Shown here: positions 1 through 31,200 of the stretch, in pieces | Layout of the letters: every line of letters starts with the position of its first letter | Position numbering within the stretch: the first letter of the stretch is position 1 | Origin: Squalus acanthias | Lineage: Eukaryota | Assembly: GCA_030390025.1 (NCBI GenBank) | Contig: CM059431.1 | Span: 151,592,001 to 151,656,000 of the forward strand | Direction of reading: 5' to 3' | Length of the DNA: 64,000 nt | Notes under the pieces: generated by a model | The model's input: the letters and a program-made list of their open reading frames with translations, nothing else | Database searches by the model: none | Told to the model about the DNA's origin: nothing | Made by a program: the position numbers and the translations under genes

Positions 1-2972
1 CAGGGGAGGTGCCAGTGGACTGGAGAACAGCTAACGGAGCACCATTATTCAAGAAGGGGAGTAGGGATAATCCAGCGAATTACAGGCCAGTAAGCCTAAC
101 ATCACTGGTAGGGAAATTATTGGAAAATATTCTGAGGACTGAATCAGTCTCCACTTGGAAAGGCAAGAATTAATCAAGGACAGTCAGCATGGCTTCATCA
201 GGGGGAGATCAGGTCTAACCAATTAGATTGATTTTTTCGAGGGGGTGACTAGGTGTGTTGATGAGACTAGTGCATTTGATGTAGTCTACATGGACATCAG
301 TAAGGCTTTTGGCAAAGACCCACATGGGAGTCTGGTCAAGTAATTAAGCGCCAACTGGATCCAAGGCAATTAGTCACATTGGATCCAAAATTGGCTTAGT
401 GGTAGGAGGCAGAGTGTGATGGTCGAAGGTTGGTTTTTGTGACTGGTAGCCTGTGTCCAGTGCTGTACAGCAGGGATCGGTGCTGGGTCCTTTGCTGTTT
501 TCAGTGTACATTAATGCTTTAGATTTGAATGTAGGAGGCATGATCAGTAAGTTCGCAGCTGACACGAAAATTGGTGGAGTGGTAAATAGCAATAAGGGAA
601 GCCTCAGTCTCGAGGACGATATATATTTTTTGGTTAGATGGGCAGAACAGTGGCAAATGAAATTTAACCCTGAAAAGTGTGAGGTGATGCATTTTGGAAG
701 TACTAACAAGGCAATGGAATACACAATAAAATGTAGGACCTCAGGAGGGACAGAGGATCAGAGGGACCTTGGTGTGCATGTACATAGATCCCTGAAGGCA
801 GCAGGACAGGTAGATAACGTGGTTCATAAGGCATATGATATAGATGCCTTCATTAGCTGAGGCTTAGAATATAAGCGCAGGGAGGTCATGATGGAGCTGG
901 AGAAAACGCTAGTTCGGCCACAGCTGGAATACCGTGTGCAGTTCTGGTCGCCACACAATAGGAGGGATGTGATTGCATTGGAGAGGGTGCAGAGGAGATT
1001 CACCTGGATGTTACCTGGGCTGGAGCGGTTCAGCTATGAAGAGAGACTGGACAGGCTGGGGTTGTTTTCCTTCGAGCAGTGAAGGCTTGTACAGAAAATA
1101 GCCATATTCCAAAAGATACACCATCCTATGAACAGATTTCTGATATTTTTAATACATGTCAAACTGGGCTTAAAAGTCTGGAAAGCCTCGGTTACACAGG
1201 CTGCAAACACAATACAGGCTTTTGAGATAAAAACATTTAATAACAAAAGCTTTAAACACCAAACAAGCTTTGAAATGGGTATCGGTTTGTAAATACTAAG
1301 ACAAAGGCCTCATTGTAAAAAAGAGGGTTGTCGGTTCCAAGGAGACTACAGTTTGGAACAACGCAATACCATATCCCAATTTAAAGTGTTAAAATCTAAC
1401 ACGTCAAACAGGTGCACAGAACATTTAAAAAAACAACTGCCTTTGAAAAATGACATCAAGTAAAAGAAATACCTGCCGTAAAATAGTTTTATGTTAATCT
1501 TAGAACAAGGAGACATGATTCTTATTACAATCAATTGAACTGAATGAGAAATGCAAAAAACACCCTAGATGGAAAACTTTTGATTTAGAAATTGTAAAAG
1601 GTATAAACAAAACACGTTGAAGATATAATATCAGTAGAAGACAACAAGCAATCACATTGTGTTTGTATTGAATATTGAATAGTTAGGAGACACGACGTCT
1701 TCTCACAAGCAGTTAAGGTGATATTAAGAATTGAATAGAAAGACTTCCGAAGAATAGCATCAAATTGATAAATCGATAATAACCATAAAAATGATAAGTT
1801 TTTGAAACACCTATACAGCAGAAAGGATTCTAAAAGTTGGCAGCTGAAATGACAGTAAGAATAGAAATTAATTCAATAGAAAATTACGAGAGAAAATTAG
1901 CTTACATCAACAGAAAACGTCAAAGAATAAACCATGAAAAAAGGTATAAAAATAAAGCTTTTCAGATAGAGAGTCAGAAGTCGCTGGGAAGGAGCAGAGC
2001 GATTCTCGCCTTCAGAACCACTCTGTAGGCCTGCAACTCTGAGTCTCGGGTAATCAAGGTATTTGATTTTGGTGCATATTCTGGATTAAGAAACAAGTGG
2101 AAGTGTGGAAATGTAACGAAGTTAAGATCCGAGAATAAGGATCTCCGATAAGAAATGTAAGCTATTTGTATTTTCAACAGTTAAATTTACGATTGCCATT
2201 CCAGTTTTTAACTGATGGTCGGTTATTTAATAAATCTATATATTTTTAAAATTGTCTCACTGAGTAATTTATGTATCAATCTCGCGAACTCAATTTCTGT
2301 ACACTCTTCAGAGAGGAGTTGCAGAATTCTGGGGGGGTTTCCACACCCTCAAAATATACGGAAGGTTACAGTCTAGTTAAACTTGGTAAAATTGCTACCC
2401 GGAGGGCGGTAACATCTTCAGGCCGTTCCTTTCCTTTAGAGAGAGATAGTCTGAACCTGTACATCCAATTAAGCGTCCCTAGGATTCGGCTACCGCTAAC
2501 TTTATTTGAAGGTGAACGTCTGGGGAATACGTCTGATCTGGGGTACCCCGAAAAGGGCTAGAAATAGTAATTCTCCCTTCAGGCTGAGGGGAGACCTGAT
2601 TGAGGTGTACAAAATTATGAGGGGCATGGGTAGCTTAGATGGAAAGAAACTTTTCCCTTTAGTAGAGGGGTCAATAACCAGGGGGCACAGTTTAAATTTA
2701 AGGGGCAGGAGGTTTAGATGGGTTTGAGGAAAATATTTCTTCATCCAGTGGGTGTTTTGAATCTGGAACTCACTGCCTGAAAGATTGGTAGAGGCATGAA
2801 CCCTCACAACATTAATGAAGCATTTAGATGAGTACTTGAAACGCCATAGCATACAAGCTGCGGACCAAGGGCTGGAAAATGGGATTAGAATTGACAGGGC
2901 TTGATGGCCGGGGCGGGCACGATGGGCCGAAGGGCTTCTTTCTGTGCTGTATGATTCTATGCCTCTATGACT
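1..2972 (+). mobile_element. CR1 LINE 3' half (decayed ORF2 RT + 3'UTR), split by a solo LTR at 1088-2581
   Basis: ORF pieces with QGSVLGP, SKFAADTK (FADD), LVRPQLEY..QFWSPH and RLRGDLIEVYKIM; (ATGACTCT)-like tail near 2950-2972; sequence resumes exactly across the LTR. Confidence 0.92.
1088..2581 (+). mobile_element. Solo LTR (~1.5 kb)
   Basis: TG...CA termini (TGTACAG...CCCTTCA); 4-bp TSD GGCT (1084-1087 / 2582-2585); interrupts CR1 RT; TATA-like GGTATAAAA near 1943 and AATAAA near 2229. Confidence 0.85.
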
Positions 2973-13589: not shown

Positions 13590-15506
13590 CTAATTTGACC
13601 AGTATGTTCTTGGCCCAACTAGGATGGAGGCATTGCTGGATCTGGTGCTGCGGGTTGAGGTGGGTCAGATCGACCAAGTGTCTGTTGGAGAACACTTCGA
13701 TATGACTGATCATTGTATCATAAGATTTAGATTAGCAATGGAGAAGAGCCAGGAACAATCTAGTGTGGAACACCTAAAGTGGAACAGGTCTAATTTAAAT
13801 GGGATGCGAAAGTATCTACCAAGGTTAAAATGGTGAAGAAGGTGAAAAAAAAATGCGTGTATGATTCATGTCAGGTGAATACATCAAGGGAAAATCAGAC
13901 CAAATACAACAAGTGTAGATGGGAAGTGAAGATGAAATTAAGATCGGCAAAGAGAGAATATGAGAGCAGAATGGCGGTTAACATAAAAGGTATCCGAAAA
14001 ATCTTCTACCGGCAGGTAAACAGTAAGCGTGTAGTAAGTGGCGGGGTGGGGCTTATTAGGGACAAAGAAGGTGATAGTTGCTTAAAGGCGCAGGGCAAGG
14101 GAAGAATAGTCAATGAATACTTTGTATCGGTGTTTACTAAGGAGGTGGATGCTGAAAAATATTGGCAGTTTTGGAAAAGGTAGAAGCAATGGAAGGTGTG
14201 AAAATTGATAGACAGGGGGTATTAGAAAGGTTGGGTATGCTTAGAGTGGATAACTCGCCTGGTCCAGATGGATTGCCTTCCAGCTTGCTAAGGGAATTGG
14301 GGGAGGAGACAGTGGAAGAGCTTGCAATATTTTTCCATTCTCCCGTAGGTGCGGGGGTGGTACCTGATTTTTGGAAAGTGACAAATATGACAACATTTTT
14401 CAAGAAAGGGTGGAAGCTTAATCCTATTGACTACAGGCTGGTCAGTTTAACATCAGTGCTGGGTAAAGTTTTAGAAACAATAATCAAGCAAAAATGTAAC
14501 GGGCACTTGGAAGGGTTTAAGCTAAATAAGTATTGCGGACACGGATCTTTAAAAGGCCGATCGTGTTTGACTCATCTCATTGAATTTTTTGATGAAGTAA
14601 CAGGGAGGATTGATGAAGGGAATGCAATGCATGTTGTCTACATGGATGTTCGGATGGCGTTTGACAAAGTACTGACCCCAGCACTAACCCTTGGCAACTC
14701 CACTGTCTACTATCCTCCATTCTGAAAAATAGCCATTTACCACAACTCGCTGTTTTCCACCCTTAAGCCAATTCTTTATCCAAGCTGCCACTGACCCAGC
14801 TTTTCCATGAGGCTGTGTAACAAAATTGATCTTCATGGAAAAGGTGGGTCAGTGGCAGCTTGGATGAAGAATTGGCTTAAGTGTAGAAAACAGCGAGTTG
14901 TGGTAAATGGCTATTTTTCAGACTGGAAGATAGTAGACAGTGGAGTTCCCCAAGGTTTAGTGCTTGGGTCAGTACTTCTTTGATATATAACTGACTTGGA
15001 TATTGAAATACAGCGTACAATTTCAAAATTTGCCGTTGACTCCAAACTTTGGGGCGTGGCAAACAGTGAGGAATATACCAATCGACTGCAACAGGATATA
15101 GTTTTGATTGCAGAATGGGCAGACACGTGGCAGATGGAATTTAATACAGAGAAGTGTGAGGTGATGCATTTTGGCAGCAGGATCAGGGAGAAGCAATACA
15201 TACTTAATTACACAGTTTTAAAGAGTGTGCAGGGAGAGAGGGACCTTGGAGTTGATGTGCCTATGTCCCTGAAGGTGGCAGGATATATTGAGAGAGTGGT
15301 TAGCAAATCATATGGGATCTTGGGCTTCATAAATAGAGGTATTGAGTACCAAAGTAGCGAATTAATGCTGAATCTTTATAAAGCGCTGGTGAGGCCACAA
15401 TTGGAGTATTGCGTCCAGTTCTTGCCACCACACTTTAGAAAGGATATGCAGTCACTTGTGAGGGTGCAGAGGAGATTTTTCGGAATGGTTCCGGGGATGG
15501 GGGGAT
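13590..15506 (+). mobile_element. CR1 LINE ORF2 fragment that hosts the provirus; resumes at 28250-28290
   Basis: SPGPDG, GRSCLTHLIEFFDEVT, SKFAVDSK, LVRPQLEYCVQF; continues after the provirus as GATCTTAGCTACAAGGGCAGGCTGGAGAAG. Confidence 0.88.
14667..14977. repeat. Inverted repeat, ~144-bp arms (14667-14810 / 14833-14977), 22-bp spacer
   Basis: Left arm is the reverse complement of the downstream CR1 sequence with scattered mismatches. Confidence 0.92.
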
Positions 15507-17147
15507 TGCAGAATTCGCAAAATTATCACGATTTTATAAAATAAGAAGGAGACATATAGTTTCGTACAAACAAGCTTTATTTCAGCAGAATGCTGTCAGG
15601 TTTTCAAAGTGGACACAAACAGCCTTTAAAATGGCCGCCACGCCTCGTGGCAGAACGTTCTAGACTTTTCAATGAGCAAACAAGATGGCGTTCCAATAAA
15701 CATTTGTGCGAGATCGGACAAGACTCAGCACATTTGAGATAATTCACAAGACATAATGGGTTGCATTTTACACATAAATACTAGAATCGGTCTCCCAGGT
15801 GCGAATAAGGGCTATTGTACCGAGCGATCAAGAACCCATCCAAAGACATTAATATGCAAAATCCCCACGACTCTACGATGAGAGAGCCGTTTGCGGGTAG
15901 TTACAGAAAGCATTTGGAAGCCCTAAAACCCCTCCAGGGAGAATACTGGCCGGTTCCACAATGGGAGAAGTATTAACGGGTACTCAGACAGTTACAAGTA
16001 TCACCGAAACCCATTAAAAACGGAGATCACCCTATACAAGAAGTTTGAGCGCCAAAACCCTGACAAAAGAAAGACATTAAGATTGGGCGGGAAAAGAGGA
16101 ATTACAGCACTATAACTGTAAGGTACAACCGTCCATCTGCCTCTTGACTCTTGCCTCTTGCTCTTGCCTCCTGACTCTTTGCCGCTTGCCTCGTGTCTCT
16201 GCCTCTTGCAGTTTGACTTGCTGAAAGACTATTGAACTTTCCGATCCGCCAGGATCAACCTCGTGGCTTGCCGCGAAGATCTGTGAAGAACTGGGCTGTG
16301 AAGCCTTGAAACGGGCACACCATCCCGAGAAGTCGGTAAACGGTGTTGGAACCGAAGGCCCGAGATGAGATGAGATGAGATGAGAAGAGAAGAAGATGAC
16401 AATACGTATCGCCACGGTCAGTAAGCCACGACCGCGCCTTTAATCGAATAAACACTTTTCCTTGCACAGGAAGACCATTCTTCGAATTTTATTGCTTCGT
16501 TGTAAGGGCACAGGAAGACTCTTTTTTGAGTAGTGTCGGAACTCCGAGGACAACACAGATCTTCATGACAGCAGACGGTCCAGCCTGCGAGCCGGAGCAG
16601 AAACGAGTAAACAAGTGGGGTACAGAGACCCCTGATCAACACGTGGATAGTCAGGTGCTGCGGTAAAAACATCCGAGCAGAGTTTCGGAATTCTCCGAGT
16701 TATCACGAGTGGTGAGCATGAGTCTCGATCCTACAAATCTAGTTTAGGACAGGTATTGATAGTGGAGGGTTTAAGTTTTAAGGATAATTGTAATGTGTGC
16801 CCCCTTTTACGATGTGTCGTGCGCTCCTCGTTTCCCTAAAATTAGTTACATAACTGCGTGTAAGATTGTACTGTCATTAATCTGTGCTTATGACATGTAT
16901 TTCGTAATCTTGAATAATATGCAATAAAGATTTTCCATTTTGAACTATTCAACCGGGTCTACCTGAGTTTTCTCTGCATTATTGCTCTCGCACCTAAGTC
17001 CAGTTTCAGAACCGTAAGGGCGAGTGGGTCGAACCACTCACAGGTGTCTTGTGTTACCAGGCTGGCTGGAGACCAGAACAGGCAACAAGGACTAACCTCG
17101 CACTAGCACCCAGGCTAAGCACAGAGCCACAGGTCTCACCCCTTACA
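15507..17147 (+). repeat. 5' LTR (1641 bp)
   Basis: TGCAGAATTC...CCCCTTACA; direct repeat of 26586-28249; contains (CTCTTG)n and (GAGAT)n microsatellites, TATAA near 16110, AATAAA near 16447 and 16923. Confidence 0.96.
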
Positions 17148-17223: not shown

Positions 17224-18957
17224 ATGGAAGAGAGAATAGCAGAATATGTGTTTGGAAAAGTGAATTTGACCAAGAAATGGATAAGTGACCTGCTGGTGGA
17301 TAAGCGTCCACTAGAGGCAGCCGAGAGGTGGACAGATAGCAAGGAACATAAAAAAACAGTGGAGAAAGCGGTCTGGCTGATGTGCTATAAACGACAAGTC
17401 CAAATTTCGGACCAGGTCATCTTAGCGCAGGCAGCTCAGATCAAGAGTTTAGAGGTGAAAATGGATGAGAAGGTCGCGGGGGGGGCAGCAGCTCATCGCG
17501 ACTTTAAATGCGTTGCATCAAGAACGCCAGTTCGTCGCCAACCACCATGAGGCAAAAATAGATTACCTCGAGTGCCAGGTCACTGAGGCAAAGGTAAATG
17601 AGGGCAGATTAAAGGAACGATGTGCCCGCCTAGCTGCCCAAATAAAAGCCCAGGAAGAGAGCTTAACGGGATTAGGGCGGCATATAAGATGGCCCTCGAG
17701 GATAAATTTCAGGGGGCCGATCACAGTGTCTGCCAAAAGGAGATATGGAACCTTAAAAAGGCCTTGAACAAAGCGCACGGCATGGTGTGCCTTATCAGCC
17801 CATCAGCACACCAGCCGCTAATGGATGAGGGATTTCAGAAATCCCCACCGAACAAAGCAGAGGAGGTATTAGCCACTGTGCCCTCCGCGCCACCCAGCTA
17901 TTCGGCAACCTGGGTGAGGGAGGAAGTGGTAGAAGTAGAGAAAGAGCCCACTGAGGTAGAAGTGAAGCCGGGACCGTTGTGTCCGGTCACGGGTATCAAG
18001 AGGGGCCCGAACGGAGCAGGTGGGGAAGAGGGGGATCTCCTCAACCAGCTTGTGTTGCCTCACAGCTCACACCAGCTGAGGGTTATGATCAGTCACGTAC
18101 GGAAGCTGGCCGAGTCAGACGACCCTTCCGTACATTTCAGGGAAGTAGAGCAAACTGCAGCCATTAACGGCTGCGATGATGGGGAAAAAGCAAAAATGCT
18201 GTTATTCTCATTAGACAGCTCGATCCTTCAGTGTCTCTCAGACGAAAGCAAGAGGGGAACTAATACCTATGGGGAGCTAAGAGATGAGGTCCTAGAAGTG
18301 TTGGGAATGGACGATGAAGGTGCGTTCGTTAGATTGGGACGAACAGTGCAGATGGATGGAGAACCCCCAAAGGTTTTTGCCGACAGGCTGTGGCCAGTAT
18401 ACCAGCGTAGCTGCACAGGCGCGCCAGCGCCTCACCGCATAGACGGTGTCGTTTTAACTCATTGGCTCAGGTGTATAGTAGCCAACAGTTTGCCAGCCGT
18501 CAGGGAGCAGGCCAAAGCGTGGTTTGATCCCACTAACCCCGCCACTACAGAGGAGTCGGTCCTAAATCGACTCACAGTAGGGTACCGTAATACCAGGAGT
18601 ACGGGAGCACGTCCCCTTAAGGGAAAGGTGCATGAGGCACGACCCGCAGCCCCGGCTCAAAAGGAGTGGCATCAGGAGGGTAACCACGCCCCGCAGGCCA
18701 GTAATGCTTGTTACGGGTGTGGGAAGACAGGGCATTGGCGCAAGAACTGCAGGAACCCTTGGAAGGAGTCCAGGGATAAAAATCACGCAGTCCGAGCCCA
18801 GGCGCCTGTCTCTGATAGGGGAGCTAGTGCACCTATCCATCCAGATGCGATCGAATCAGTGTTGGGAGCCATGCGCACCCTCATGAGTTCACATGGAAGG
18901 GTGGCGGTTGCTACCGGCCCCGCAGATGCCGCAGCCCCGTCCAATAGTACCCAATGA
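17224..18957 (+). pseudogene. gag: Gag: N-terminal coiled-coil region, capsid-like region, one CCHC zinc knuckle; two compensating frameshifts
   Basis: CYGCGKTGHWRKNC at 18709-18750; ORFs 17152-17550, 17465-17767 and 17620-18957 stitch via shifts at the G8 run (17478-17485) and near 17670; start codon uncertain (17206 or 17224). Confidence 0.85.
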
Positions 18958-21900
18958 CTAGAGCCCGCACAGCCCGTCTACCTGTGTCCGCTCAGCTATG
19001 ATGCGTGGAAGCGACCCCTGGTGGAGATGGAGGTAGAAGAACAGAAGGGTAGTTATTTGTTGGACACGCGAGCTTCATGCACCGTGATTCATACGGATAG
19101 CCATTTTGACTCACCGCTATCTACCAAGGTCCCATTCACATTAGCGGGGTTCACGGGAAAAGAGCAGGCTGGCGCGTTCTCCCTTCCGCTATCCATTCAT
19201 TTAGGAGCACTCCACACCACGTGGAAGTGCATACTGATGAAATGGCAAGAGGGGGGTGGGAGAGGCATCCTCGGATCAGACCTCCTATCGGGGCACGGGA
19301 TCCTCGTGGACCTCAGGAATCACTGTCTCTGGGGGGCTAAGGGTGAAGAAGGCGAGGTAGTGGTAATTCCGGGGGAGGAAGGAACAGGGGCCCTCTGTAA
19401 CATGAAGCCATCCGGAGGCTACGACCTCGGGCTTATGGTCGCGGATGTCCCGACGGACATGCAAACGTACGTGTCAGATAATATGCACGCGTTTGCAACA
19501 CACAAGCACGATTGTGGGAGGGTTACCGGGTTTGAGGTCAGCGTAGATGGGGACCCCATGACCCGGCCCCAAAAGCAGTATAACTTCCCCAAAGAAGCAG
19601 AACCCGATATGGAGACAGCAATGTCCTCCTTGGTGCAGCAGGGCGTGTTGAGGCCGATAGCCACACACGTGAACTCCCCATTATGGCCGGTTAGGAAGCC
19701 GGATAATTCGTGGAGGGCCACGGTGGACTACAGAGTCCTTAACAGTAACATTCCCGCCTGCGCGCCCACGGTAGCAGCAGTAGCTGACCTAATAGGGAGT
19801 ATGACAGCATCCGCGACCACGTTCACGGTGCTGGATATCTCGAACGGTTTTTGGTCCATCCCGCTGCGACGAGAGGACCAGTACAAGTTTGCCTTTACTT
19901 TCAAAGGACAACAGTACACATGGAAGTGTCTGCCACAGGGTTTCCACAACAGCCCCAGTATTTTCCATCAGTGTATGGCAGGAAGTTTAAAGGAGTTTAG
20001 TTAGCACAATCAGATAGTGCAGTACGTGGATGATTTGCTCCTATTTACGGATTCAAGGGAGGAGCATGGACCACTGCTGGCCGAGTTATTGGAGCTGCTA
20101 GCGAGAAAGGGTTTTAAAGTGAACCCTAAGAAAGCACGTATCCGTCAGCAGGAAGTAAAATTCCTGGGGCTGACCATTCGCGCTGGGGAAAGAGCCATAG
20201 ATAAGGCTAGGAGGGAGTCGGTGCAAGAGTTACCGATTCCCAACACCATAAGGGGTGTGAGGTCCTTTTTGGGACTGACCGGTTACTGCAGGGATTTTAT
20301 CGAAGACTATGCGGCCACAGCGGCGCCGCTGCTCCGACTCCTCCATAAGGGAGTGGAGTGGTATTGGGACGAGGGCTGCCAGGCAGCCTTCGAGAAGTTA
20401 AAAAGGGATTTGCAGACCGCGCCAGCTTTAGGGGCCATAGATGGGGGGAAGGAGTTTTTCCTGGAGGTAGCTGCCAACGGGGACAGCTTGAGCGCTGTGC
20501 TGCTCCAAGAGCGTCACGGCAAGCTGAGGCCGGTTGTCTATTTGCCCAGGGTGTTAACGGATGTGGAGAGGAGTTTCTCCAATTGCGAAAGGCACCTTTT
20601 AGCCACGCATTGGGCTGTGAAAAGATCAGCGATCTTCACAGGGCTCTCTCCCATCACTCTCCTCACCCATCACACACCAACTAAGATGCTTCTAGATGGG
20701 AGGATTAAAGATGGGACCGTAAGCAGCGTACGTATTGCGCGCTGGACCCTTCTCCTTTCCCAGATGGATCTTAGAATTAAAGGTCTTTGCGAGCCCAGGC
20801 TTGCGGCCAACTTGGTATACCCCGCTACAGCCCACCAGTGTTCGGTGGAAGGGGTGTGGGAAGTCAACATAGGTTTGCGGGCCGGGATACATCCCACTGG
20901 GCGCGAGATTTATGTTGATGGTTCCAGCACAGTGTCCGCTGGCAAACGATCACAGGGTGTGGAGTTTATGACCCTGCGGCAAACCTTGCCCTGGCGATCA
21001 AGCTCCCTAGCACCATGAGCGCGCAGCAAACCGAGCTGTCTGCCGTGGTGTACGTCGTTACCCACCCAGAAACTTTCCCAACCCCATACACGATTTGCTC
21101 GGACAGTATGTTCACATGCAATTCGTGTACGGAATACCTGGCCATTTGGTCCCGCCGTGGATACACCTCCGCGGACGGACGACCTTTAACGGTGAAGCCC
21201 TTGCTGGAAAAGATCCTAGCAGCAGTAAGGGAGGAAGGGGAGATTTTCATCCATAAGGTGAAGGCTCACTCCTCCACAGAGCCCCGTGGGGAGGGCAACC
21301 AGCAGGCGGATGCGCTAGCCAGGGAGGGTGCCCGCAACGGCATTTTCTGGGACCACTATGGGCCCAGACCCGTGGCAGCGATCCAAGGCAGGGACGGGAA
21401 TCCCGGGAACACCAGGGTAGCATTGCCCCTAGACCTTAAGACCGTCCAGAACCAGGATCCCGCCCTAAAAGCAGTCCTCAGAACCCTTGCTGAGGGGAAA
21501 CAGGTAGAGGGCCCGTACAGTACGGCAACCCTCTCCGTTAAGGAAGGCATGCTGTTCCGCGAGGAGCAGTGGGTTGTGCCGCAGCAGCACAGGATGGAAT
21601 TTCTCCAGTTGGCCCATGAGGGACTGGGGGCAGGGCACCCCGGGCCCGAGGTTACCTGGCAACGGGTAGAGCAAGCGGGATGGTGGCCGAGGCTCAGGGA
21701 GCAGGTCCGCGAGTTCTGTGCAAGCTGTCTCGTGTGCGCTGCAAACAACCCAGACCCCCAGAAAAGGAAAGTGCCCATGGGGCACATCAGGAGGGTAGAG
21801 GGACCGCGGCAGTCGATACAGATCGACTATATAGGGCCGCTGCCCAAAACCCAGGGAGGCTATAAATACTGCCTCGTCTTGGTCGATGTGTTTTCCAAAT

Positions 21901-23504
21901 GGGTGGAAGCTTTCCCCTGTAGAACAGCTACGGCACTGGGTAATGCAAACATCTTGGTCCGGGAAGTGTTCTCGCGGTGGGGACTTCCCCGTTTTGTGGA
22001 GTCAGGCCAAGGAAGTCATTTCACCGTCCAGGTGATGCAGAACACCCTCATGCTTTTGGGCATTGAAGGGAAATGGCATGTAGCGCACAATCCCCAGTCA
22101 TCCGGGATTGTTGAACGCATGAACCGGACCCTGAAGGAGAAATTGAGGAAAGAGACTATGAACTCGCCCCAAAAATGGGCGGAGATTCTGCCTTTAGTCC
22201 TCATGGGGGTCCGGGCCAGTCAGTCGAAAAGTACGGGGTATTCCCCGCACGAGGTGATGACTGGGAGGATCATGCGAACCCCCACCCATGTGCTGGCGCC
22301 GGTGCTCACTGAGGGTCAGCTCCAAGAGATAAGCAGGGAGAAGTTCGTCCAGACCCTCTTGGAGTGCCTGAAGCAGGTTTACGAGCAGGCGGCTGGGAAC
22401 ATGGGAAGGCAGCATCAGGGCAATCGCCTGTTGCTGGAACCCCGCAAAAAGTGAGAGTGGGAAGTAGGAGACCAGGTCATGGTCAGAAACTACGCCAGAG
22501 TAGGGATTCTGGAACCACTGTATATGGGACCCTACAGCATTGTAGATAAGGCGAGCCCCATGGTATACGCCGTAAAGGTACCTCGGCGCACTAAGTGGTT
22601 CCACGTAAATCAGTGCAAACTGTATAAGCCGGGTGCACAAGGGCCTACCACAGGGGCAAAACCTGCGAGTGGGGACTCGCAGCCCCAGGTAGGGCCACAG
22701 GGCACACAGGCAGGCAAAGCAGCTTGCATCAGGGGAGAGGACATCCTAGAAAAATGTGAGATATTTTATTGGGGTTGGGAGACAGATGAGGAAGAGCTCG
22801 AGGAGCTCGACGAAGATAGTGACACAAGCGAGGAGGAGCTGGAATCGGAGGTCGAAAGGGTCGCCCCCGATTCAAGTATAGGGGGGACAGGGGCAGCAGA
22901 TAGAGATCCACAAAGGGTAGAGGCCGAAGCTGCAGGTCCCGAACACAGGGGGGCGGAGCTAGGGGAGGCGGAGCCAGCCGCTGTGGTGGGACCACAGGGC
23001 GTGGCGATGGAAGCCTCAGAGCCCGAGCCGCCCGCCTTGAACGTCTTGCCCTCGAGGGAGGTAGGGACTGTGAGTGAAGGGCCGCCTACTGGGCCAAGTA
23101 GGGCGGTGCCACAAGCTGCAGATCCCGAGTTCAGGGAGGCGTAGTCAGGGAAGGCGGAGCCAGCGACTGTGGTGGGACCACAGGTCGCCACGGTGGAAGT
23201 CTCGGAACCCGGTCCGTCGGTCCTGAAGTTCCTGCCCCCGGTAGCTCTCCGTAGGTCAAGTCGGACACCCCAGCCCAGGAAGATATGGTCAAGTCCCCAG
23301 AGTGTCCCAAGGCGTAGGTTCAAGGCTAAGGCAGCCCAGGGAGAGCCCAGTCACAGCGCAGCAGCAACAGGCTGCGGCAGATCAAAGGAGGGGTCAACGC
23401 CCTCCCACCGTTGGGAGAAGCCTGCGCAGCAACCGCAGAATTTGAGTAGGCCGCCCTGGGAACGGGCGGCGCTGAACAGTGATAAGTTTAGGATGAGTTT
23501 ATAA
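18958..23504 (+). pseudogene. pol: Pol: protease - RT - degenerate RNase H (tether) - RNase H - integrase - acidic C-terminal extension
   Basis: LLDTRAS (DTG mutated); NSPLWPVRKP, LPQGFHNSP, QYVDD; IYVDGSS..SAQQTEL..CSDS..KVKAH..GNQQADALA; HHCC zinc finger; QIDYIGP..ESGQG..GIVERMN. Stops at 20002, 22452 and 23142; frameshift near 20950. Confidence 0.93.
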
Positions 23505-23590: not shown

Positions 23591-23781
23591 AGTATAATTT
23601 TGTTTAACAGAAAGAGGTAAAATAATGGGAGTTTTTAGAGATAGGAATAGTTAAAGTGTATCCAGCGCACATGTCTTCTTACTTGAGGCGAGGTCAGGGG
23701 ACCCGCTCACCCTTCACAAAAGCCAGAGACTCTTGGGAGGCTGGCTACCTAATTCTATCTGATCACAGGAACCAAGGAAGG

Positions 23782-26133
23782 ATGGAACGAATTCTAGTAT
23801 TGCTCGCGGCAATCGGATGTGGATTGGCCTATCGAGGCCACACCAAGGATGTCGTGGTGTTTGGATATTCCGGGGACACGGCCCCCATCGTGGTGGATGG
23901 GACCGGAAGGCGAGAGGATGAGGAGACCACCACCTATTTCCACAAGGGAAGGTGGCCAGGATGGCTGGGAACGAATTCAACTGAGTATTCCAGTACATCG
24001 GGTTTTGCCTACAAAGAGACTTCTTTAATGTGCCCCAAAGTTAGGATCATCGCACCCAGAGTCAGCGTCACCGTCGGCAAACGGATTTGTTTGACTTGTA
24101 ATGGGAATGTCCCATTGAGCCGATGGTGGTGGCTACGAAAGCTGAGCAAAAACATGAGGAACTCTTCGGTCGAGTGGGAGCGACTGGGTAATAATACGCA
24201 TCGGACAATTACGGGTACAAACGGACAAGTGAGAGTCTGTTGGGACAAATGGTGGGAACCGGATGAGGGAATTTATGTATGTATGTGGGGGTCAAAGCAC
24301 GTTTGCCCCAAAGGCATCTCCATATTTTTCATCAATCAATGGCAGGATAACGGACAGGGGATGAGGTGGGATGCGAGCACCAGGGGGTGCGGAGCCCCAT
24401 ACTCCCCGATACCGGTAAATGCCACTGAACTCATTACGCGCCCACGCAAAGCCCCGCCCACGATTCCGGTGGTTCTAGCTAAGGAAGAAGGGTGCCCTAA
24501 AACCAGTAAGGGACCCGGGAATGGTTTGGTACTGGTCCCCACAGACCAGATACTATTTCAGGGGGTACATTACGCGGTGACCTCGGTGATTTTAAATCTC
24601 ACCGAGGTGCGGTTACCAGAGTGGTGCCCCAAAAAGACGGTACAGTTATATCAGGTCCTGTTGACCAAGATGTTTAGACAATTTTATGAGTTCGATTTCG
24701 CGGAAATTGATAAAACAAGTTTGTACACCGCACCACATGAAGTTTTGGATCAGGTGGGGAGGCAAAGAAGGGGTGTTGTGAACGACGTGTTCACTGCTTT
24801 CAATACAGGTACATCTGTGGTCAACGCTCTAGGCAGCGTGGAGCTGCAGACCCAGATTAATGGCTTAAAAACGCAATTAAAAAGCATTCTCACAGATGAA
24901 AATAAGGTGGTTGGGTCTGAATTACACGAGGAGCAGGCCATGACTCTCCATTTAAAAGAAATAATAGCTGAACTAGAGAAACATGCGCGTACGGTAAATG
25001 CCCTGATTAGGGAAGATCGGAATGCGTCCGATCACGCTGCGCAGAATGAGGTGTGCGTGCTTTACGGGGCGTGGTTACTGGGCGAGGGCCGCAGTAATTT
25101 GGAGGATTTAAAACAAGGTTTGTTCCCGTCCTGGATAAGTAACAAACACCTGCAGGCGCTCCACCCTTTTTAGAACGCATTAAACCCGTGCCAGCTCAGA
25201 CTAGCTTCAGAAGCATACCCAGTCCCCGTGGACTGCGGACGATCAAACCATACTATCATGGATATAGTATTACGTATGCCGGTTTTGGGCGACACAACAA
25301 AGCCCGCCCCGGTGTATCGGGTAGAGAACATTGGTGTCATTCAGGGGGGAGCCCACATTCGCTGTGCAGCGGTTCCACCTTATGTCACCCGCTGGGAGCA
25401 AACAATGACATGTACAGATCTCTCTGGTTGTCGTGGCCGGGGAGCACACATAATACTGTGTCCCCAGCACTTGAATGCCTTTTTAACACCAGAGTGCGGG
25501 TTCAGAACGGCTGGCGCCAAGCCCATGAATTGCACCATGGAGGCAATGGCACAAGATCATGTGCCTCCGCAGGTAGCATACATCGGGGGTGGAACATATT
25601 GTGTTACCACTGCAGCGCAACACTACCGACATGGAAACCGTAGCCGGTGTCCGGTGAGTGACAGCAGTTTCTGTTTCAAACCCAGGGCGGAAGTTCAAGT
25701 AGCACAACAGTGAATTGTCCCAAACCCTGAACCATCCACAGTGCATCTTACCGTAAAAGAGAACTTCACCGACCTGCAGCGATTCGTCGCGCATTTTGGA
25801 TACCTCATTCCCCCTCTCCCTGAACACCTCACCAAGCTTTTGAAAGCCGTCGCGGTATCGCAAAAACATTTTTACACCCTAGAACAAAAGACTGTCGAGA
25901 TAGGGACAGAAATTCTGGACATATTAATTCCACCGTGTTGGAATCTGTTCACCAACATTGAAGTGCCTTCCTGGATTAGAATAGCCTCCCACATTTTAGT
26001 TGTATGCCAAGTGTTTATTGTGGTATACTTATTGGTCGTGCATTGTAAGAGAGGCAAAAGCCTCACCAAGAACGAAAACACGGGAGAGTGGCGAGAACGT
26101 TACGTGCGCGTGCACGATGAAAGCACTGTGTAA
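23782..26133 (+). pseudogene. env: Envelope glycoprotein (~783 codons): signal peptide, Ig-like domain, furin site, fusion peptide, heptad repeat, Cys-rich domain, TM; two in-frame stops
   Basis: MERILVLLAAIGCGLAY; RQRR/GVVNDVFTAFNTGTSVVNALG with the furin site at 24760-24771; TM at ~25972-26040; ORFs at 23656, 25228 and 25741 share one frame, separated by TAG 25171 and TGA 25711. Confidence 0.88.
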
Positions 26134-26573
26134 ACAGACAAAATAGCGTCACTCCCGTTTTACACGTGCGCCTCGGAAGTGTTGTAATCGATCGTGATTT
26201 TTCTCAGAAACTGTAATTAAGTTTGGAACTCTACATGTTTAAGAGTTGGTTTTGATTATTTTTGTTTGGTGTTGTTGAATATGATTGTTTGGTTTTTTTT
26301 TTGTTGTTTTCTTTTTCCTTGAATTAAAAAATATGCATATACAGGTGGTGCGAGAGGCATCGGCCTGGTTACACCTGGAAGGAAAATACAAGTGGTGTAA
26401 GTTAAAGGCAAATGCTGCCTGCGGTGTTATAAGAATGTAGTTTTTTCTTGGGAAATAAGGACGATACGGAGACCCTAGATAGTTTTAAGTTATGGGAATT
26501 TTTGGATGTGGAGAATCGAGATAATATTGCTCACCACAATATTTTTGATACGATAAGCGGAGTTATTCGCATC

Positions 26574-26585
26574 AACAGGAGGGAC
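26574..26585 (+). promoter_or_regulatory. Polypurine tract (short)
   Basis: AACAGGAGGGAC immediately upstream of the 3' LTR. Confidence 0.65.
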
Positions 26586-28249
26586 TGTAGAATTCGCAAA
26601 ATTATCACGATTTTATAAAATAAGAAGGAGACATATAGTTTCGTACAAACAAGCTTTATTTCAGCAGAATGCTGTCAGGTTTTCAAAGTGGACACAAACA
26701 GCCAGTAAAATGGCCGCCACGCCTCGTGGCAGAACGTTCTAGACTTTTCAATGAGCAAACAAGATGGCGTTCCAATAAACATTTGTGCGAGATCGGACAA
26801 GACTCAGCACATTTGAGATAATTCACAAGACATAATGGGTTGCATTTTACACATAAATACTAGAATCGGTCTCCCAGGTGCGAATAAGGGCTATTGTACC
26901 GAGCGATCAAAACCCATCCAAAGACATTAATATGCAAAATCCCCACGACTCTACGATGAGAGAGCCGTTTGCGGGTAGTTACAGAAAGCATTTGGAAGCC
27001 CCAAAACCCCTCCAGGGAGAATACTGACCGGTTCCACAATGGGAGAAGTATTAACGGGTACTCAGACAGTTACAAGTATCACCGAAACCCATTAAAACGG
27101 AGATCACCCTATACAAGAAGTTTGAGCGCCAAAACCATGACTAAAGAAATACATTAAGATTGGGCGGGAAAAGAGGAATTACAGCACTATAACTGTAAGG
27201 TACAACCGTCCATCTGTCTCTTGACTCTGCCTCTTGACTCTGCCTCTTGACTCTTGCCTCTTGCTCTTGCCGCCTGACTCTTTGCCGCTTGCTCGTGTCT
27301 CTGCCTCTTGCAGCTCTTGCTGTTTGACTTGCTGAAAGACTATTGAACTTTCCGATCCGCCAGGATCAACCTCGTGGCTTGCCGCGAAGATCTGGGCTGT
27401 GAAGCCTTGAAACGGGCACACCATCCCGAGAAGTCGGTAAACGGTGTTGGAACCGAAGGCCCGAGATGAGATGAGATGAGATGAGAAGAGAAGAAGACGA
27501 CAATACGTATCGCCACGGTCAGTAAGCCCCGACCGCGCCTGTAAGTCGAATAAACACTTTTCCTTGCCCAGGAAGACCATTCTTCGAATTTTATCGCATC
27601 GGTGTAAGGGCACAGGAAGACTCTTTTTTGAGTAGTGTCGGAACTCCGAGGACAACACAGATCTTCATGACAGCAGACGGTCCAGCCTGCGAGCCGGAGC
27701 AGAAACGAGTAAACAAGTGGGGTACAGAGACCCCTGATCAACACGTGGATAGTCAGGTGCTGCGGTAAAAACATCCGAGCAGAGTTTCGGAATTCTCCGA
27801 GTTATCACGAGTGGTGAGCATGAGTCTCGATCCTACAAATCTAGTTTAGGACAGGTATTGATAGTGGAGGGTTTAAGTTTTAAGGATAATTGTAATGTGT
27901 GCCCCCTTTTACGATGTGTCGTGCGCTCCTCGTTTCCCTAAAATTAGTTACATAACTGCGTGTAAGATTGTACTGTCATTAATCTGTGCTTATGACATGT
28001 ATTTCGTAATCTTGAATAATATGCAATAAAGATTTTCCATTTTGCACTATTCAACCGGGTCTACCTGAGTTTTCTCTGCATTATTGCTCTCGCACCTAAG
28101 TCCAGTTTCAGAACCGTAAGGGCGAGTGGGTCGAACCACTCACAGGTGTCTAGTGTTACTAGGCTGGCTGGAGACCAGAACAGGCAACAAGGCCTAACCT
28201 CGCACTAGCACCCAGGCTAAGCACAGAGCCACAGGTCTCACCCCTTACA
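26586..28249 (+). repeat. 3' LTR (1664 bp)
   Basis: TGTAGAATTC...CCCCTTACA followed by TSD GGAT. Confidence 0.96.
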
Positions 28250-31200
28250 GGATCTTAGCTACAAGGGCAGGCTGGAGAAGCTGGATGTGTTTTATCGAGT
28301 TATAGACTTTTACAGCACTGAAAGAGGCTCTTCGGCTCATCGTGTCCAGGCCGGCCATCAAGCCCTGACTATTCTAATCCCATTTTCCAGCACTTGGTCC
28401 GTAGCCTTGTATGCTATTGCGTTTCATGTGCTTATCTAAATGCTTCTTTAATATTGTGAGGGTTCCTCCCTCTGCCACCCTTTCAGGCAGATAGTTCCAG
28501 ATTCCAATCACCCTCTGGGTGAAAAAGTTTTTCTTCAAATCCCCTCTAAACCTCCTGCCCCTTACCTTGACACTAATCCCCCTGGTTATTGAACCCTCAA
28601 CTAAGGGGAAATGTTCCTTTCTATCTACCCTGTCTATGCCCCTCATCATTTTGTACACCTCAATCTGGTCCCCCCTCAGCCTTCTCTGGTCTAAGGGAAA
28701 CAACCTCTGCCTGTCCAGTCTCTCTTCATAGCTGAAGCGCTGCAGCCCAGGTAACATCCTGGTGAATCTGCTCTGCAACCTCTTCAATGCAATCATATCC
28801 TTCCTATAGTGTGGCGACCAGAACTGCACACAGTATTCCAGCCGTGGCCTAACTAGCGTTTTGTACAGCTCCAACATAACATTCCTGCTCTTTTATTCTA
28901 TGCCTCGGCTTATGAAGGCAAGTATCCCATGTTCCTTTTTAATGAACTTATCTACCTGCCCTAATGCCTTCAGGGATCGATGCACATGCACACCAAGTGC
29001 CCACTGATCCACTGTCCTTCCTAGTGTACTACCATTCTTTGTGTATTCCCTTGCCTTGTTAGTCCTCCAAAAATGCATCACCTCACACTTTTCAGTGTTA
29101 AAATCAATTTGCCACTGCTCTACCCATCTGGCCAACCCGTCTATATCGTCTTGTAGCCTAAGGCATCCCTCCTCGCTATTTACCACTCCACCATTTTTCG
29201 TGTCATCGGCGAACTTACAGATCATACCTCCTACATTCATATCTAAATCATTAATGTACACTGCAAACAGCAAAGGACCCAGCACCGATCCCTGCGGTAC
29301 ACTACTGGACACAGGCTTCCAGTCACAAAAACAAACTTCGACCATCATGCTCTGCCTCCTGCCACTAAGCCAATTTTAGATCCAATGTGCCAAAATACTC
29401 TGGATCCCATGGGCTCTTACCTTTTTGACCAGTCTCCCATGCGGGACATTGGCAGAAGCCTTACTGAAGTCGATGTATACCACAGCAACTGCACTACCCT
29501 CATCCACACACCTAGTCACCCCCTCGAAAAATTCAATCAAATTGGTTAGACATGGTCTCCCCCTGACAAAGACATGCTCACTATCCTTGATTAATCCTTG
29601 CCTCTCCAAGTGCAGATAATTTCTGTCCCGCAGAATGTTTTACAATAATTTACCTACCACTGATGTTAGGCTCACTGGCCTGTAATTCCCTAGTTTAACC
29701 CTACTCCCCTGCTTGAATAACTGTACTACATTGGTGCCCTCCAGTCCTCTGGCACATCCCCTTTGGCCAGAGAGGTTCTGAAAATTTGCGTCAGATCACC
29801 TGCAATCTCCTCCCTTGCCTTACACAGCAGCCTGTGATACATCTCGTCTGTGCCTGGGGATTTATCCACTTTTAAGCCCGCTAAACCGCTAGTAACTCCT
29901 CCATCTCAATACTAATTTCTTCAAGTATATCAAAATCCCCCTGCCTGATTTCTATGCCTACATCGTCCTTCTCCACAGTGAACATAGATGCAATATATTA
30001 ATTGAAATCCTCACTCACATCTTCTGGCTCTACACACAGATTGCCTCTTTGGTCCCTAATGGGCCCTACTCTTTCCCTGGTTATCCTCTTGCCATTAATA
30101 TACTTCAAAAACACCTTGGGATTTTCCTTTATTTTGCCCGCCAGTGTTTTTGCATGCCCCCTCTTCGTTCTCCTAATTATTTTTTGAAGTAAACTCTGCA
30201 CTTTCTGTACTCCTCTAGGGTTTCCACTGTTTTTAGTCCTTTGGATCTGCAAACGCTTCCCTTTTTTTCCGAATCCATCTGGGCTTGTTGGTCCCACCCT
30301 TGACCTTTACGGCAACATGTTGGGGTTGTACTCTCTCTATTTCATTTCTGAAAGACTCCCACTGCTCCGATGTCGATTTTCCTACAAGTAGCTGATACCA
30401 GTCCACTTTGGCCAGATCTAGCCTTATCATATTAAAGTCGGCCTTCCCCCAATTTGGAACCTTTATTTCCGGTCCATCTTTGTCCTTTTCCATGACTACC
30501 TTAAATCTCAACGAATTATGGTCAGTAACAACAAAATGCTCCCTACTTACACTTCTGCCACTTGTCCGGATACATCCCCTTGAATTAGGTCCAGTAGCGC
30601 CCCCTCTCTTCTAGGACTTTCTACAAGCTGGCTCAAAAAGCTCTCCTGGATGCACTTTAAGAATTCCGCACCCTCTAAGCCTTTCACACTCTGACTATCC
30701 AAGTTAATATTACCCTATTATTTCTACATTTCTCTGAGATTTGCCTACATATCTGTTCCTCTTCCTCTCCCTGACTGTTTGGGGGCCGATAGTACACTCC
30801 CAGCAATGCGCTTGCCACCTTTTAGTTTTTAAGTTCTACCCATATGGCCTTATTAGAGAAACCTGCGAAGATATCAGCCCTCCTTACAGCATTCATTGAC
30901 TCCTTGATTAATATTGCGACACCCCGTCGTCTTTTACGCCACTCTCTGTCTCGCCTGAAGATTCTATACCTTGGAATATTGAGCTGCCAGCCCTGTCGTT
31001 CCCTCAACATTGTCTCTGTGATAGCAACAATATCATACTCCCATGTGTTCATCAACACCTTCAATTCATCTGCCTTACTCGTTAGACTCCTTGCATTAAA
31101 ATAAATGCTATCCTGCCTTGCCATAATCCCTTTTGTCGTTACATGTTTGCTCTGCCTTCCAGGCTGACTTATTTTTTCCTCTATATTTGGCTGTGCATCA

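Follow-up and report, generated by a model that had tools for sequence, protein, structure and literature searches.

A predicted immunoglobulin-like domain in the N-terminal head of an endogenous retroviral envelope protein from Squalus acanthias

The envelope gene (env) of an endogenous retrovirus in the genome of Squalus acanthias encodes, upstream of its fusion machinery, what sequence comparison and structure modelling together identify as a genuine, highly diverged immunoglobulin (Ig)-superfamily domain of the V/I-set type. The domain occupies residues 84–190, with predicted disulfide bonds C103–C167 and C106–C153. We consider it about 60% probable that it forms the core of a ~220-residue N-terminal head on a class I envelope protein, with receptor binding as the most likely function of that head. 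If so, this would be a rare case in which an Ig domain of cellular type forms part of a retroviral Env. F-type class I fusion proteins have been portrayed as a minimal scaffold bearing grafted receptor-binding modules, the foamy virus Env and the coronavirus spike being the known cases in the accessible part of that work (PMC11468914); an N-terminal Ig-superfamily head on a retroviral Env would then represent a third, independent solution. Since surveys of foamy-like endogenous retroviruses in sharks and fish, in the portions of text available, did not report recognisable env domains (PMC10699275, PMC5512871), annotation of this env family would also fill a gap.

The provirus and the layout of its envelope protein

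The window, by which we mean the whole 64,000-nucleotide stretch of DNA that was analysed, contains a defective copy of a young, highly amplified and very abundant endogenous retrovirus (Table 1). Its LTR pair consists of four direct-repeat blocks that are 97–99% identical and lie ~11.1 kb apart. The gag-like open reading frame matches the Pfam family zf-CCHC with an E-value of 0.0012 and 19.3 bits, slightly short of the cut-off of 20.8 bits, and is followed, after a stop codon, by pol in the same frame. In pol, Pfam recognises RVT_1, RT_RNaseH_2, RNase_H, Integrase_H2C2 and rve; the gene is disrupted by an in-frame stop at 20002–20004 and by a frame change within 20919–21018. The solved structures nearest to its product are foamy virus PR-RT (3e-32) and PFV integrase (4.3e-32). 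Spumaviruses are not known to have a CCHC knuckle in gag or a pol that follows gag in frame, whereas the present element has a gag with this knuckle and pol next in frame.

Table 1. Features of the provirus and of its env gene, in positions of the window.
Feature	Position	Strand	Basis or remark
5' LTR	15499..16743	+	Extent is the span of repeat pairs; true ends may differ
gag-like ORF with CCHC zinc knuckle	17602..18954	+	ORF list and Pfam
pol (RT, tether RNase H-like domain, RNase H, integrase)	18958..22454	+	ORFs and Pfam
env	23782..26133	+	~783 codons; translation (frame 1 of 23782–26136)
Predicted signal peptide, aa 1–19	23782..23838	+	Hydrophobic core ILVLLAAIGCGLA, sequence alone
Conserved pre-Ig segment, aa 20–83	23839..24030	+	GRWPGWLG-NST-YSS motif
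Ig-like (V/I-set-type) domain, aa 84–190	24031..24351	+	Motifs, Pfam, profile, look-alikes, structure model
Cys-containing tail and Pro-rich linker, aa 191–240	24352..24501	+	Sequence; RPRKAPPTIP at aa 221–230
Putative F2-like segment, aa 241–330	24502..24771	+	F2-like length and position
F1-like fusion subunit	24772..26133	+	Sequence; hydrophobic peptide GVVNDVFTAFNTGTSVVNAL first
3' LTR	26578..27845	+	Extent is the span of repeat pairs

The translation of env begins MERILVLLAAIGCGLA and is interrupted in this copy by in-frame stops at codon 464 (25171–25173) and codon 644 (25711–25713); in a paralogous copy, the same frame is open over 820 codons. The N-terminal add-on that houses the Ig-like domain comprises ~220 residues. 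A preliminary description of the region had placed an Ig domain straight after the signal peptide, with a span of 24040–24330 (aa 87–183). Apart from the slightly wider boundaries adopted here, this has to be amended in that a conserved segment of 64 residues intervenes. Within this segment, G63, N65, S66, S70, S71 and Y77 are almost invariant in the family alignment; its pN/pS is 0.29 and its predicted pLDDT is below 30. The tail and Pro-rich linker on the other side of the domain have pLDDT values below 40 and are 50–54% identical between lineages.

From residue 241 onward, Env displays the layout of an F-type (class Ib) fusion glycoprotein, in which aa 241–326 are followed by a basic cleavage motif, RQRR, at aa 327–330 (24760–24771), which closes the F2-like segment, by the peptide GVVNDVFTAFNTGTSVVNAL, and by ~450 residues to the membrane anchor at about aa 735–757. 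After its hydrophobic peptide, the F1-like subunit continues with a heptad-rich stretch, a Cys-rich core, a second helical stretch, the anchor and a short tail. The head is N-terminal to this motif and separated from it by only ~90 residues. ESM-Atlas look-alikes of the fusion subunit are Gypsy env, Baculo_F and Fusion_gly F0 proteins (0.94–0.96), which we take as a lead only. A Pfam search with an open 783-aa env paralogue gave no match at E ≤ 10, including to PF00523 and foamy Env, and a six-sequence profile of the fusion core returned four PDB matches at E ≤ 10, none of them an F or Env chain. Of the proposal that a Pro-rich linker precedes an F-like module, the linker is plainly there; the F-likeness of the module has its layout and these leads in its favour and a Pfam or PDB match is wanting. 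The layout suggests an F-like fold for the Env core.

Foamy virus Env is described, in the accessible part of its structural study, as an F-like scaffold into which a receptor-binding domain is inserted, and is termed a 'class Ib' fusion protein (Sci Adv 2024, PMC11468914). The present protein resembles it in being a retroviral Env whose fusion subunit is long, which has a furin-type cleavage site and which, by prediction, carries a separate cell-binding module on the same chain. According to the same source, however, the foamy virus domain differs in fold and follows the F2-equivalent elements, with the furin site coming directly after it, whereas the Ig-like module here precedes the F2-length segment; the modules of the coronavirus spike sit N-terminally (PMC11468914). 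The features given there for spumaretrovirus Env, a foamy-fold receptor-binding domain before the furin site and a long leader peptide, were not found in our Env. Its domain arrangement differs, as had been supposed, from those of paramyxovirus and pneumovirus F; it also differs from that of foamy virus Env as far as the latter is described in PMC11468914. The lokiretrovirus Env, which is reported to resemble paramyxovirus and pneumovirus F, has a signal peptide, basic cleavage site, fusion peptide, coiled coil and membrane anchor in common with the present one, as the accessible text of its description indicates (Wang and Han, Mol Biol Evol 2020, PMC7947760). It is reported there to match PF00523 with an E-value of 2.2e-7, a match absent here. 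In the accessible text of that description, the words immunoglobulin, cartilaginous and shark are absent (PMC7947760).

Sequence and predicted structure of the Ig-like domain

The Ig motifs noticed at the front of Env in the preliminary description are all present, and Pfam, profile and structure comparisons agree with them. They comprise VSVTVGKRICLTC at aa 94–106, the B-strand Cys C103, the Trp-rich C strand RWWW at aa 115–118 and DEGIYVC at aa 161–167. C103 and C167 are separated by 64 residues, within the Ig B–F spacing of ~55–75. There is a second invariant Cys pair, C106 and C153, the E–F region contains the Trp-rich motif CWDKWW, and an N-glycan sequon is conserved at N137 (N60-x-T62 in the domain alignment). 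In alignment numbering, C26, C29, C76, C90, G86, W77 and W81 are invariant in all nine sequences. In the DxGxYxC motif, Gly and Cys are invariant across the family and Asp is sometimes replaced by Glu; the C-strand Trp is a Phe in the most divergent env lineage. Cellular V/I-set Ig domains (CRTAM IgV, IgLON/DIP Ig1, CD147, CD79b) have the B–F Cys pair, DxGxYxC and the strand order in common with this domain, which differs from them by its extra Cys pair and its Trp-rich motifs.

When the N-terminal 233 residues were searched against Pfam, the sole match was Ig_3 (PF13927), with an E-value of 0.037 and 15 bits. An Ig profile match had been foreseen and does exist, with scores in this copy of 11.2–15 bits that lie under the cut-off of 30 bits. 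Ig_3 ranks first in eight of eight family members, the best E-value being 7.1e-4 and all scores being below the cut-off. Because of these scores, we call the domain Ig-like, or of Ig-superfamily type, and not a member of Ig_3. A nine-sequence family profile found the CRTAM IgV domain in the PDB with E-values of 8.2e-4 and 1.6e-3, followed by DIP-eta, neurotrimin, OBCAM, CD8alpha, KIT, IgLON5 and CD79b, and C103 and C167 aligned with the CRTAM Cys pair. Ig-superfamily chains make up 15 of the 16 matches at E ≤ 1, a proportion to be read in light of the abundance of antibodies in the PDB, which raises the chance of an Ig chain appearing as a weak top match. A single-sequence phmmer search of the PDB returned just a Fab light chain and JAM, both with E > 1, and was set aside as too weak on its own. 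Among ESM-Atlas look-alikes of the domain (0.92–0.93), every one with a Pfam family belongs to an Ig family.

AlphaFold predicts a two-sheet Ig sandwich for aa 78–215 in a model of moderate confidence (mean pLDDT 54.4; 59–79 over model residues 10–93). Its strands, at model residues 10–19, 24–30, 38–43, 55–58, 64–69, 72–78, 84–92 and 103–112, form the series A-B-C-C'/D-E-F-G, of which the G strand is of low confidence. In an earlier run on aa 1–260, with a mean pLDDT of 38.9, the Ig stretch was the best part. VIA-align matched the model to CD147, titin, NCAM2, CD79b and antibody V domains at 12–22% identity, superimposing 75–90 residues at 2.5–3.7 Å with a best Z of 7.3, where values of 6–7 may, according to the tool, reflect a common arrangement. 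In Foldseek, Ig domains again came out on top, with a best E-value of 0.02 and none at E ≤ 0.001. The Ig sandwich suspected earlier is thus predicted, with Ig domains as its best structural matches. A Foldseek search of viral predicted structures (BFVD) gave mixed weak phage matches and no retroviral Env, and so told us nothing about the fold.

Could this be a β-rich viral domain with a merely convergent resemblance to Ig and motif matches that arose by chance? We consider this unlikely, since independent methods arrive at one and the same register, in which the B-strand Cys, the C-strand Trp and DxGxYxC coincide with those of CRTAM in the profile alignments, since the Cys pair is invariant in nine of nine sequences, and since the E-value of the profile for CRTAM fell from 0.013 to 8.2e-4 once the most divergent sequence was included. 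Convergence would account for the position of every sequence score below curated thresholds, for the moderate model with Z values of 6–7 that are usual among β sandwiches, and for the lack of any Pfam match in the most divergent lineage.

In retroviral Env of the gamma type, the receptor-binding domain forms the N-terminal head of SU, with an Ig-like β-sandwich core and a Pro-rich join to the rest of Env; the transmembrane subunit of these proteins is short, with a CX6CC motif. The Env studied here is similar in its N-terminal SU head and Pro-rich region, but has a ~450-residue fusion subunit and no CX6CC among the listed Cys positions. No gamma-type Env structure is among the listed Foldseek and VIA-align matches.

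Distribution, selection and origin

Env relatives with an Ig-like head were found in Rhinoraja (skate), Pristiophorus (sawshark) and further assemblies. The genome of S. acanthias itself harbours two more env lineages, with 49–53% identity (11 loci) and 60% identity (1 locus) to the present one. A fourth, low-copy lineage displays 26% identity over 265 residues of SU, with the Ig core aligned. At least four lineages across skate, sawshark and S. acanthias thus carry the domain, which bears on the earlier question of whether related env genes have or lack it: as judged from sequence, this env family regularly has the head in cartilaginous fishes, and it is not the quirk of a single copy. Word-indexed homology searches, including one with the fusion-core profile, returned cartilaginous-fish sequences only.

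The Ig region has a pN/pS of 0.25 among 28 copies, indicating purifying selection. These copies were ranked on env aa 334–463, and 28 of 29 loci were used, the remaining one (L049) lacking an identifiable env start. A sample ranked on aa 1–233 was replaced, because ranking on the same stretch biases pN/pS downwards there. Between lineages, the head is 53–65% identical, compared with 78–82% for the fusion core; the head therefore diverges faster, and its divergence is concentrated in loop-like stretches between conserved strands.

We performed an exhaustive phmmer search of 1.84 billion representative proteins, which yielded 12 proteins at E ≤ 0.001, nine of them ERV env relatives. As ERV-derived proteins of cartilaginous fishes were returned, the library includes the proteomes of these animals. 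The sole cellular Ig protein in the set is a multi-Ig fish protein (P0016), whose E-value of 6.2e-4 is summed over seven repeats. We rejected it as a link to a donor because its hhalign alignment to the family profile covers only 30 columns with a probability of 7%. A bacterial repeat protein of 5014 residues (P0012) matches aa 22–88 sixteen times with an E-value of 3.8e-41; we ascribed this to a short motif rich in Gly, Asp and Ala whose score is multiplied by the repeats, and treated another bacterial repeat protein (P0015) likewise.

These results bear on the suggestion that the domain was captured from the host. Viruses acquire host Ig domains, and both this general precedent and the cellular-type Ig hallmarks of the domain would agree with a recent capture, in which it was lately copied from a host Ig-superfamily gene and a near-identical donor is to be expected. 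The shark Ig-superfamily donor looked for accordingly did not turn up, however, as no cellular protein among the 1.84 billion representatives matched better than P0016. For lack of a close cellular match, we reject a recent capture, which we regard as extremely improbable; the domain is moreover common to the 26%-identical lineage and to the skate and sawshark envelope proteins. Its presence in that distant lineage means that any capture must be old. Capture as such survives in this older form, and the domain is likely to be of ancient cellular origin.

Possible roles of the head

The position of the head, its faster divergence relative to the fusion core and the purifying selection on it together favour a role in attachment. 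The head would bind a molecule on the cell surface, and its displacement might then free the fusion core, in the manner suggested for other class I fusion proteins of modular design; the Pro-rich linker would couple it to the F2-length segment, the RQRR site and the fusion subunit of F1 layout. The same data would be compatible with a head that shields, modulates immunity or clamps the prefusion state.

If the head acted as an immune decoy or modulator, it would mimic a host ligand of the nectin, CRTAM or IgLON kind and blunt recognition instead of serving entry. The nearest solved relatives by profile are indeed Ig proteins of immunity and adhesion (CRTAM, CD8alpha, CD79b, the IgLON family), and the domain is under purifying selection; these matches are weak, however (E-values of ~1e-3 to 0.5), and express kinship at the level of the fold only. 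The domain is also covalently part of the sole envelope protein, where it lies outermost, and upstream of the cleavage site there is no rival receptor-binding region of similar size. We hold a decoy function to be improbable, and it would not exclude a role in entry.

Slightly less improbable, though still rather unlikely, is a structural cap that shields or clamps the prefusion apex and has no specific receptor, attachment being non-specific, for example to glycans. The conserved N-glycan sequon within the domain would suit a cap, as would the foamy virus precedent, in which, as far as the accessible text goes, Env attaches via heparan sulfate and its receptor-binding domains roof the prefusion trimer (PMC11468914). 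Divergence that is faster than in the core and resides in loop-like stretches is, on the other hand, more typical of a surface that faces a partner or antibodies.

Under the attachment reading that we prefer, a more far-reaching scenario can be put forward tentatively, and we think it more doubtful than probable: a basal retroviral lineage of cartilaginous fishes may long have used an Ig head of cellular descent, placed N-terminally on an F-type machine as in the coronavirus spike, to bind a host Ig-family adhesion molecule by mimicking its Ig partner. Given the many copies and the several lineages with natural variation in the head, the question of the receptor is approachable using soluble domains. 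As pure speculation, the invariant C-L-x-C (CXXC) at the B strand could in addition switch by thiol exchange, as the CXXC in SU of gamma-type Env does.

Evidence for an Ig-type domain in the env head

The strings quoted in the preliminary description of an Ig-like domain in env (VSVTVGKRICLTC, RWWW, DEGIYVC and RPRKAPPTIP) are all found in the translation. The domain was placed there after the signal peptide; between the two lies a conserved 64-residue segment. The domain constitutes the conserved core of an N-terminal extension of SU (the head), and the Pro-rich linker tethers it to the fusion module.

Features of the provirus and its env gene, in window coordinates
Feature	Window position	env residues	Strand	Remark
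Direct repeats (provirus bounds)	15499-16743 and 26578-27845			97-99% identical
gag-like ORF with CCHC knuckle	17602-18957			ORF and domain match; stop at end
pol	from 18958			same frame as gag-like ORF; RT, tether RNase H-like domain, RNase H, integrase (Pfam)
Long ORF running on past integrase core	22455-23504			Tf2-1-type SH3 match, E=3.5e-5, under cut-off
env	23782-26133			translation
Codon 29	23866-23868	29		Tyr in window copy
Pre-Ig segment		20-83		conserved
Ig-like domain	24031-24351	84-190		sequence
C-L-x-C (CXXC)	24088-24099	103-106		includes B-strand Cys
Stretch of ~90 residues after linker		241-326		
RQRR		327-330		cleavage site
Non-LTR-type reverse transcriptase ORFs	28374-29639		minus	Pfam RVT_1, E=1e-10 on 28893-29375

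On the N-terminal 233 residues of env, Ig_3 is the sole Pfam match (E=0.037; 15 bits against a cut-off of 30), and a single-sequence phmmer search of the PDB returned a Fab light chain and JAM only, both at E>1. Ig_3 is the top Pfam match in all eight members of alignment A3, which comprises three lineages from the same genome together with skate, sawshark and further relatives (best E 7.1e-4); the A3 profile matched the CRTAM IgV domain in the PDB at E=0.013. With a fourth, far more distant lineage added (A5, nine sequences), the matches to CRTAM IgV improved to 8.2e-4 and 1.6e-3, supporting, together with the sub-threshold Ig_3 matches, the proposed Ig-type assignment. At E<=1, 15 of the 16 PDB matches of A5 are Ig-superfamily chains, the exception being ArfGAP1; they include DIP-eta, neurotrimin, OBCAM, MXRA8 (which we take to be an Ig-superfamily protein), CD8alpha, KIT, IgLON5, CD79b, a nanobody and a Fab. 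In the profile alignment to CRTAM, C103 falls on the B-strand Cys, and D-E-G-I-Y-V-C167 coincides with the DxGxYxC motif. All ESM-Atlas look-alikes of the domain with a Pfam family belong to Ig families (I-set, V-set, ig), at 0.92-0.93.

An AlphaFold model of aa 78-215 (mean pLDDT 54.4; 59-79 over model residues 10-93) has a strand order compatible with A/A', B, C, C'/D, E and F, plus a G strand of low confidence. Foldseek yielded no PDB match to this model at E<=0.001; the rows listed, the best at E 0.02, are antibody, nanobody or shark VNAR variable-domain entries, judged from their titles. The best Z in VIA-align against 48,161 representative chains was 7.3, and 75-90 residues could be aligned at 2.5-3.7 Å; a Z under 8 may reflect a common arrangement. 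Its rows comprise CD147/basigin, titin, NCAM2, CD79b, neuroplastin, obscurin, DIP, TCR, VNAR and antibody fragments, the matched chain being ambiguous from the title for 7epu_A, 8zd5_F, 8d2s_B and 9k0c_L. The head may alternatively hold a non-homologous beta domain. Because the individually weak results concur on both fold and register, we put the probability that env aa 84-190 adopts an Ig-type fold, as predicted from profiles and model, at about 90%.

Distribution, selection and origin

The Ig-like domain is not peculiar to the window copy. In the Squalus acanthias genome the env family is young and occurs in extremely high numbers: over the first 233 residues, at least 150 copies share 96-100% identity (150 scored of 6069 first-look candidates), 143 of these 150 are free of stops in this region, and open frames of >=820 codons hold 50 of the first 100 listed copies by hand count. 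Two further lineages of the same genome comprise 11 loci at 49-53% and one locus at 60% identity to the window N-terminal region; the fourth lineage is low-copy, with 16 genome matches and 31-41% tblastn identity to window env aa 153-514. Its SU shares 26% identity over 265 residues (E=6e-17), and the Ig core aligns in register. Relatives in public protein sets come from Rhinoraja longicauda, Pristiophorus japonicus, Scyliorhinus torazame and others. The domain is present in every public relative covering the region and in all four lineages. In three public gene models (P0005, P0010 and P0017), env pieces are fused to cellular proteins (a C2H2 zinc-finger array, 'Niban 1-like' and 'cadherin-related 5-like'); ERV insertions have most likely led the annotation to create these chimeras.

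The B-F Cys pair, a second Cys pair (C106, C153), G163 and two Trp of CWDKWW are invariant in all nine A5 sequences, as is the CXXC motif to which the B-strand Cys belongs; CXXC motifs of gamma-type SU control the labile SU-TM bond. In the distant lineage, the C-strand Trp is replaced by Phe and the C'-D region is shorter; in its uninterrupted copy L079 the Cys spacing is 54 residues rather than 64. At another locus of this lineage, L078 (G000:C7:97466500-97475500, minus strand), the domain is broken by sequence absent from L079.

Pairwise Nei-Gojobori pN/pS among 28 copies picked on env aa 334-463 (one of 29 loci was skipped) was 0.29 for the pre-Ig segment, 0.25 for the Ig domain, 0.19 for the tail and 0.17 for the F2-like segment. 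A first sample, picked on aa 1-233 and biased in pN/pS for that region, gave 0.22 for aa 334-733, outside the selection criterion. Identity between lineage 1 and lineage 3 is 53-65% in the head and 78-82% in the fusion peptide, heptad and core regions. The head is therefore constrained yet faster-evolving than the fusion machinery; receptor-binding parts usually evolve faster in this way. Near-identical, mostly open copies with largely synonymous differences (pN/pS 0.17-0.29 across SU) suggest that the family multiplied through replication with a functional env rather than through duplication of dead elements.

When the N-terminal 233 residues were searched exhaustively by phmmer against 1.84 billion representatives, 12 proteins matched at E<=0.001; nine of them are ERV env relatives, and no close cellular donor was among them. 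A cellular Ig protein is represented only by a fish protein with multiple Ig domains, whose match (E=6.2e-4) is summed over seven repeats; two bacterial repeat proteins were regarded as spurious. In P0012, a 5014-residue bacterial repeat protein, 16 repeats match env aa 22-88 (34% identity; summed E=3.8e-41); composition or a short motif, amplified by the repeats, is the probable cause. Judged from the alignments, the domain is older than the divergence of env lineages now 26% identical. Of the capture from a host that the preliminary description proposed, a recent event was rejected, given the lack of a close donor and a domain common to these lineages. That the domain was captured long ago from an Ig-superfamily gene of a host is, we think, rather likelier than convergence, since hallmarks of cellular-type Ig sequences have been kept.

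Putative role of the head

With env as the sole envelope protein and nothing else sizeable upstream of the cleavage site, the Ig-type head is probably the attachment or receptor-binding module. It may alternatively serve as an immune decoy, the other role suggested beforehand, or as a glycan-shielded cap. In an attachment role, engagement of the head would release the fusion core, by analogy with the model put forward for modular class I proteins, foamy Env among them (PMC11468914). The same source reports that foamy Env is an F-like scaffold into which a receptor-binding domain has been inserted. The earlier observation of the Ig domain thus stands, and its interpretation holds in part.

A class I fusion scaffold with a grafted binding module is a general design already known. 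We found no earlier description of what appears here to be an Ig-superfamily head N-terminal on a retroviral Env of F-type layout: full-text searches of main texts yielded nothing relevant among the papers listed. One apparent match concerned the Ig domains of CD4. Two surveys of foamy-like ERVs of sharks and fishes (PMC10699275 and PMC5512871) detected no env domains or nothing but pol in cartilaginous fishes, and the word immunoglobulin is absent from a 2026 review of ERV structures (PMC13709493).

The remainder of env and the provirus

Behind RQRR, a hydrophobic peptide precedes a long heptad-rich stretch and a Cys-rich core; a second helical stretch then leads to the membrane anchor and a short tail. 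The post-cleavage subunit comprises ~450 residues. As read from the sequence, this layout is that of paramyxovirus F, unlike gamma-type TM. The F-like module described earlier is borne out in its layout but not by sequence matches: Pfam gave no match on an open 783-residue paralogue, including PF00523 and the foamy Env family, and the family profile found no relevant match in the PDB. ESM-Atlas look-alikes of the core, a lead, fall in Gypsy env, Baculo_F and Fusion_gly F0 clusters at 0.94-0.96.

The solved structures nearest to pol are those of foamy virus enzymes (foamy virus PR-RT 3e-32 versus MLV RT 5e-19; PFV integrase 4.3e-32 versus Ty3 1.7e-24). A CCHC gag with in-frame pol resembles read-through retroviruses, unlike spumaviruses. 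The virus may be foamy-like, lokiretrovirus-like or of another basal lineage; lokiretrovirus Env is reported to match PF00523 (PMC7947760), whereas the paralogue of the window env does not.

The window provirus is a dead copy, because pol contains one in-frame stop and one frame change, and env is interrupted by in-frame stops at two positions, codons 464 and 644. Codon 29 (FGYSG) is Cys (FGCSG or YGCSG) in skate relatives and in the other own-genome copies with the env start read, so a conserved head cysteine has been lost. An in-frame ATG lies 37 codons 5' of MERIL (window 23671-23781; MSSYLRRGQG...), and this extension, open in a paralogue too, is quite different in lineage-3 copies; it could conceivably be a cytoplasmic leader of the foamy Env kind, though this is doubtful. 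Following its SH3 match, the ORF past the integrase core has an acidic Ser/Glu-rich and then a Pro-rich stretch, both without any family match. The non-LTR reverse transcriptase ORFs directly downstream of the 3' LTR belong to an unrelated retrotransposon.
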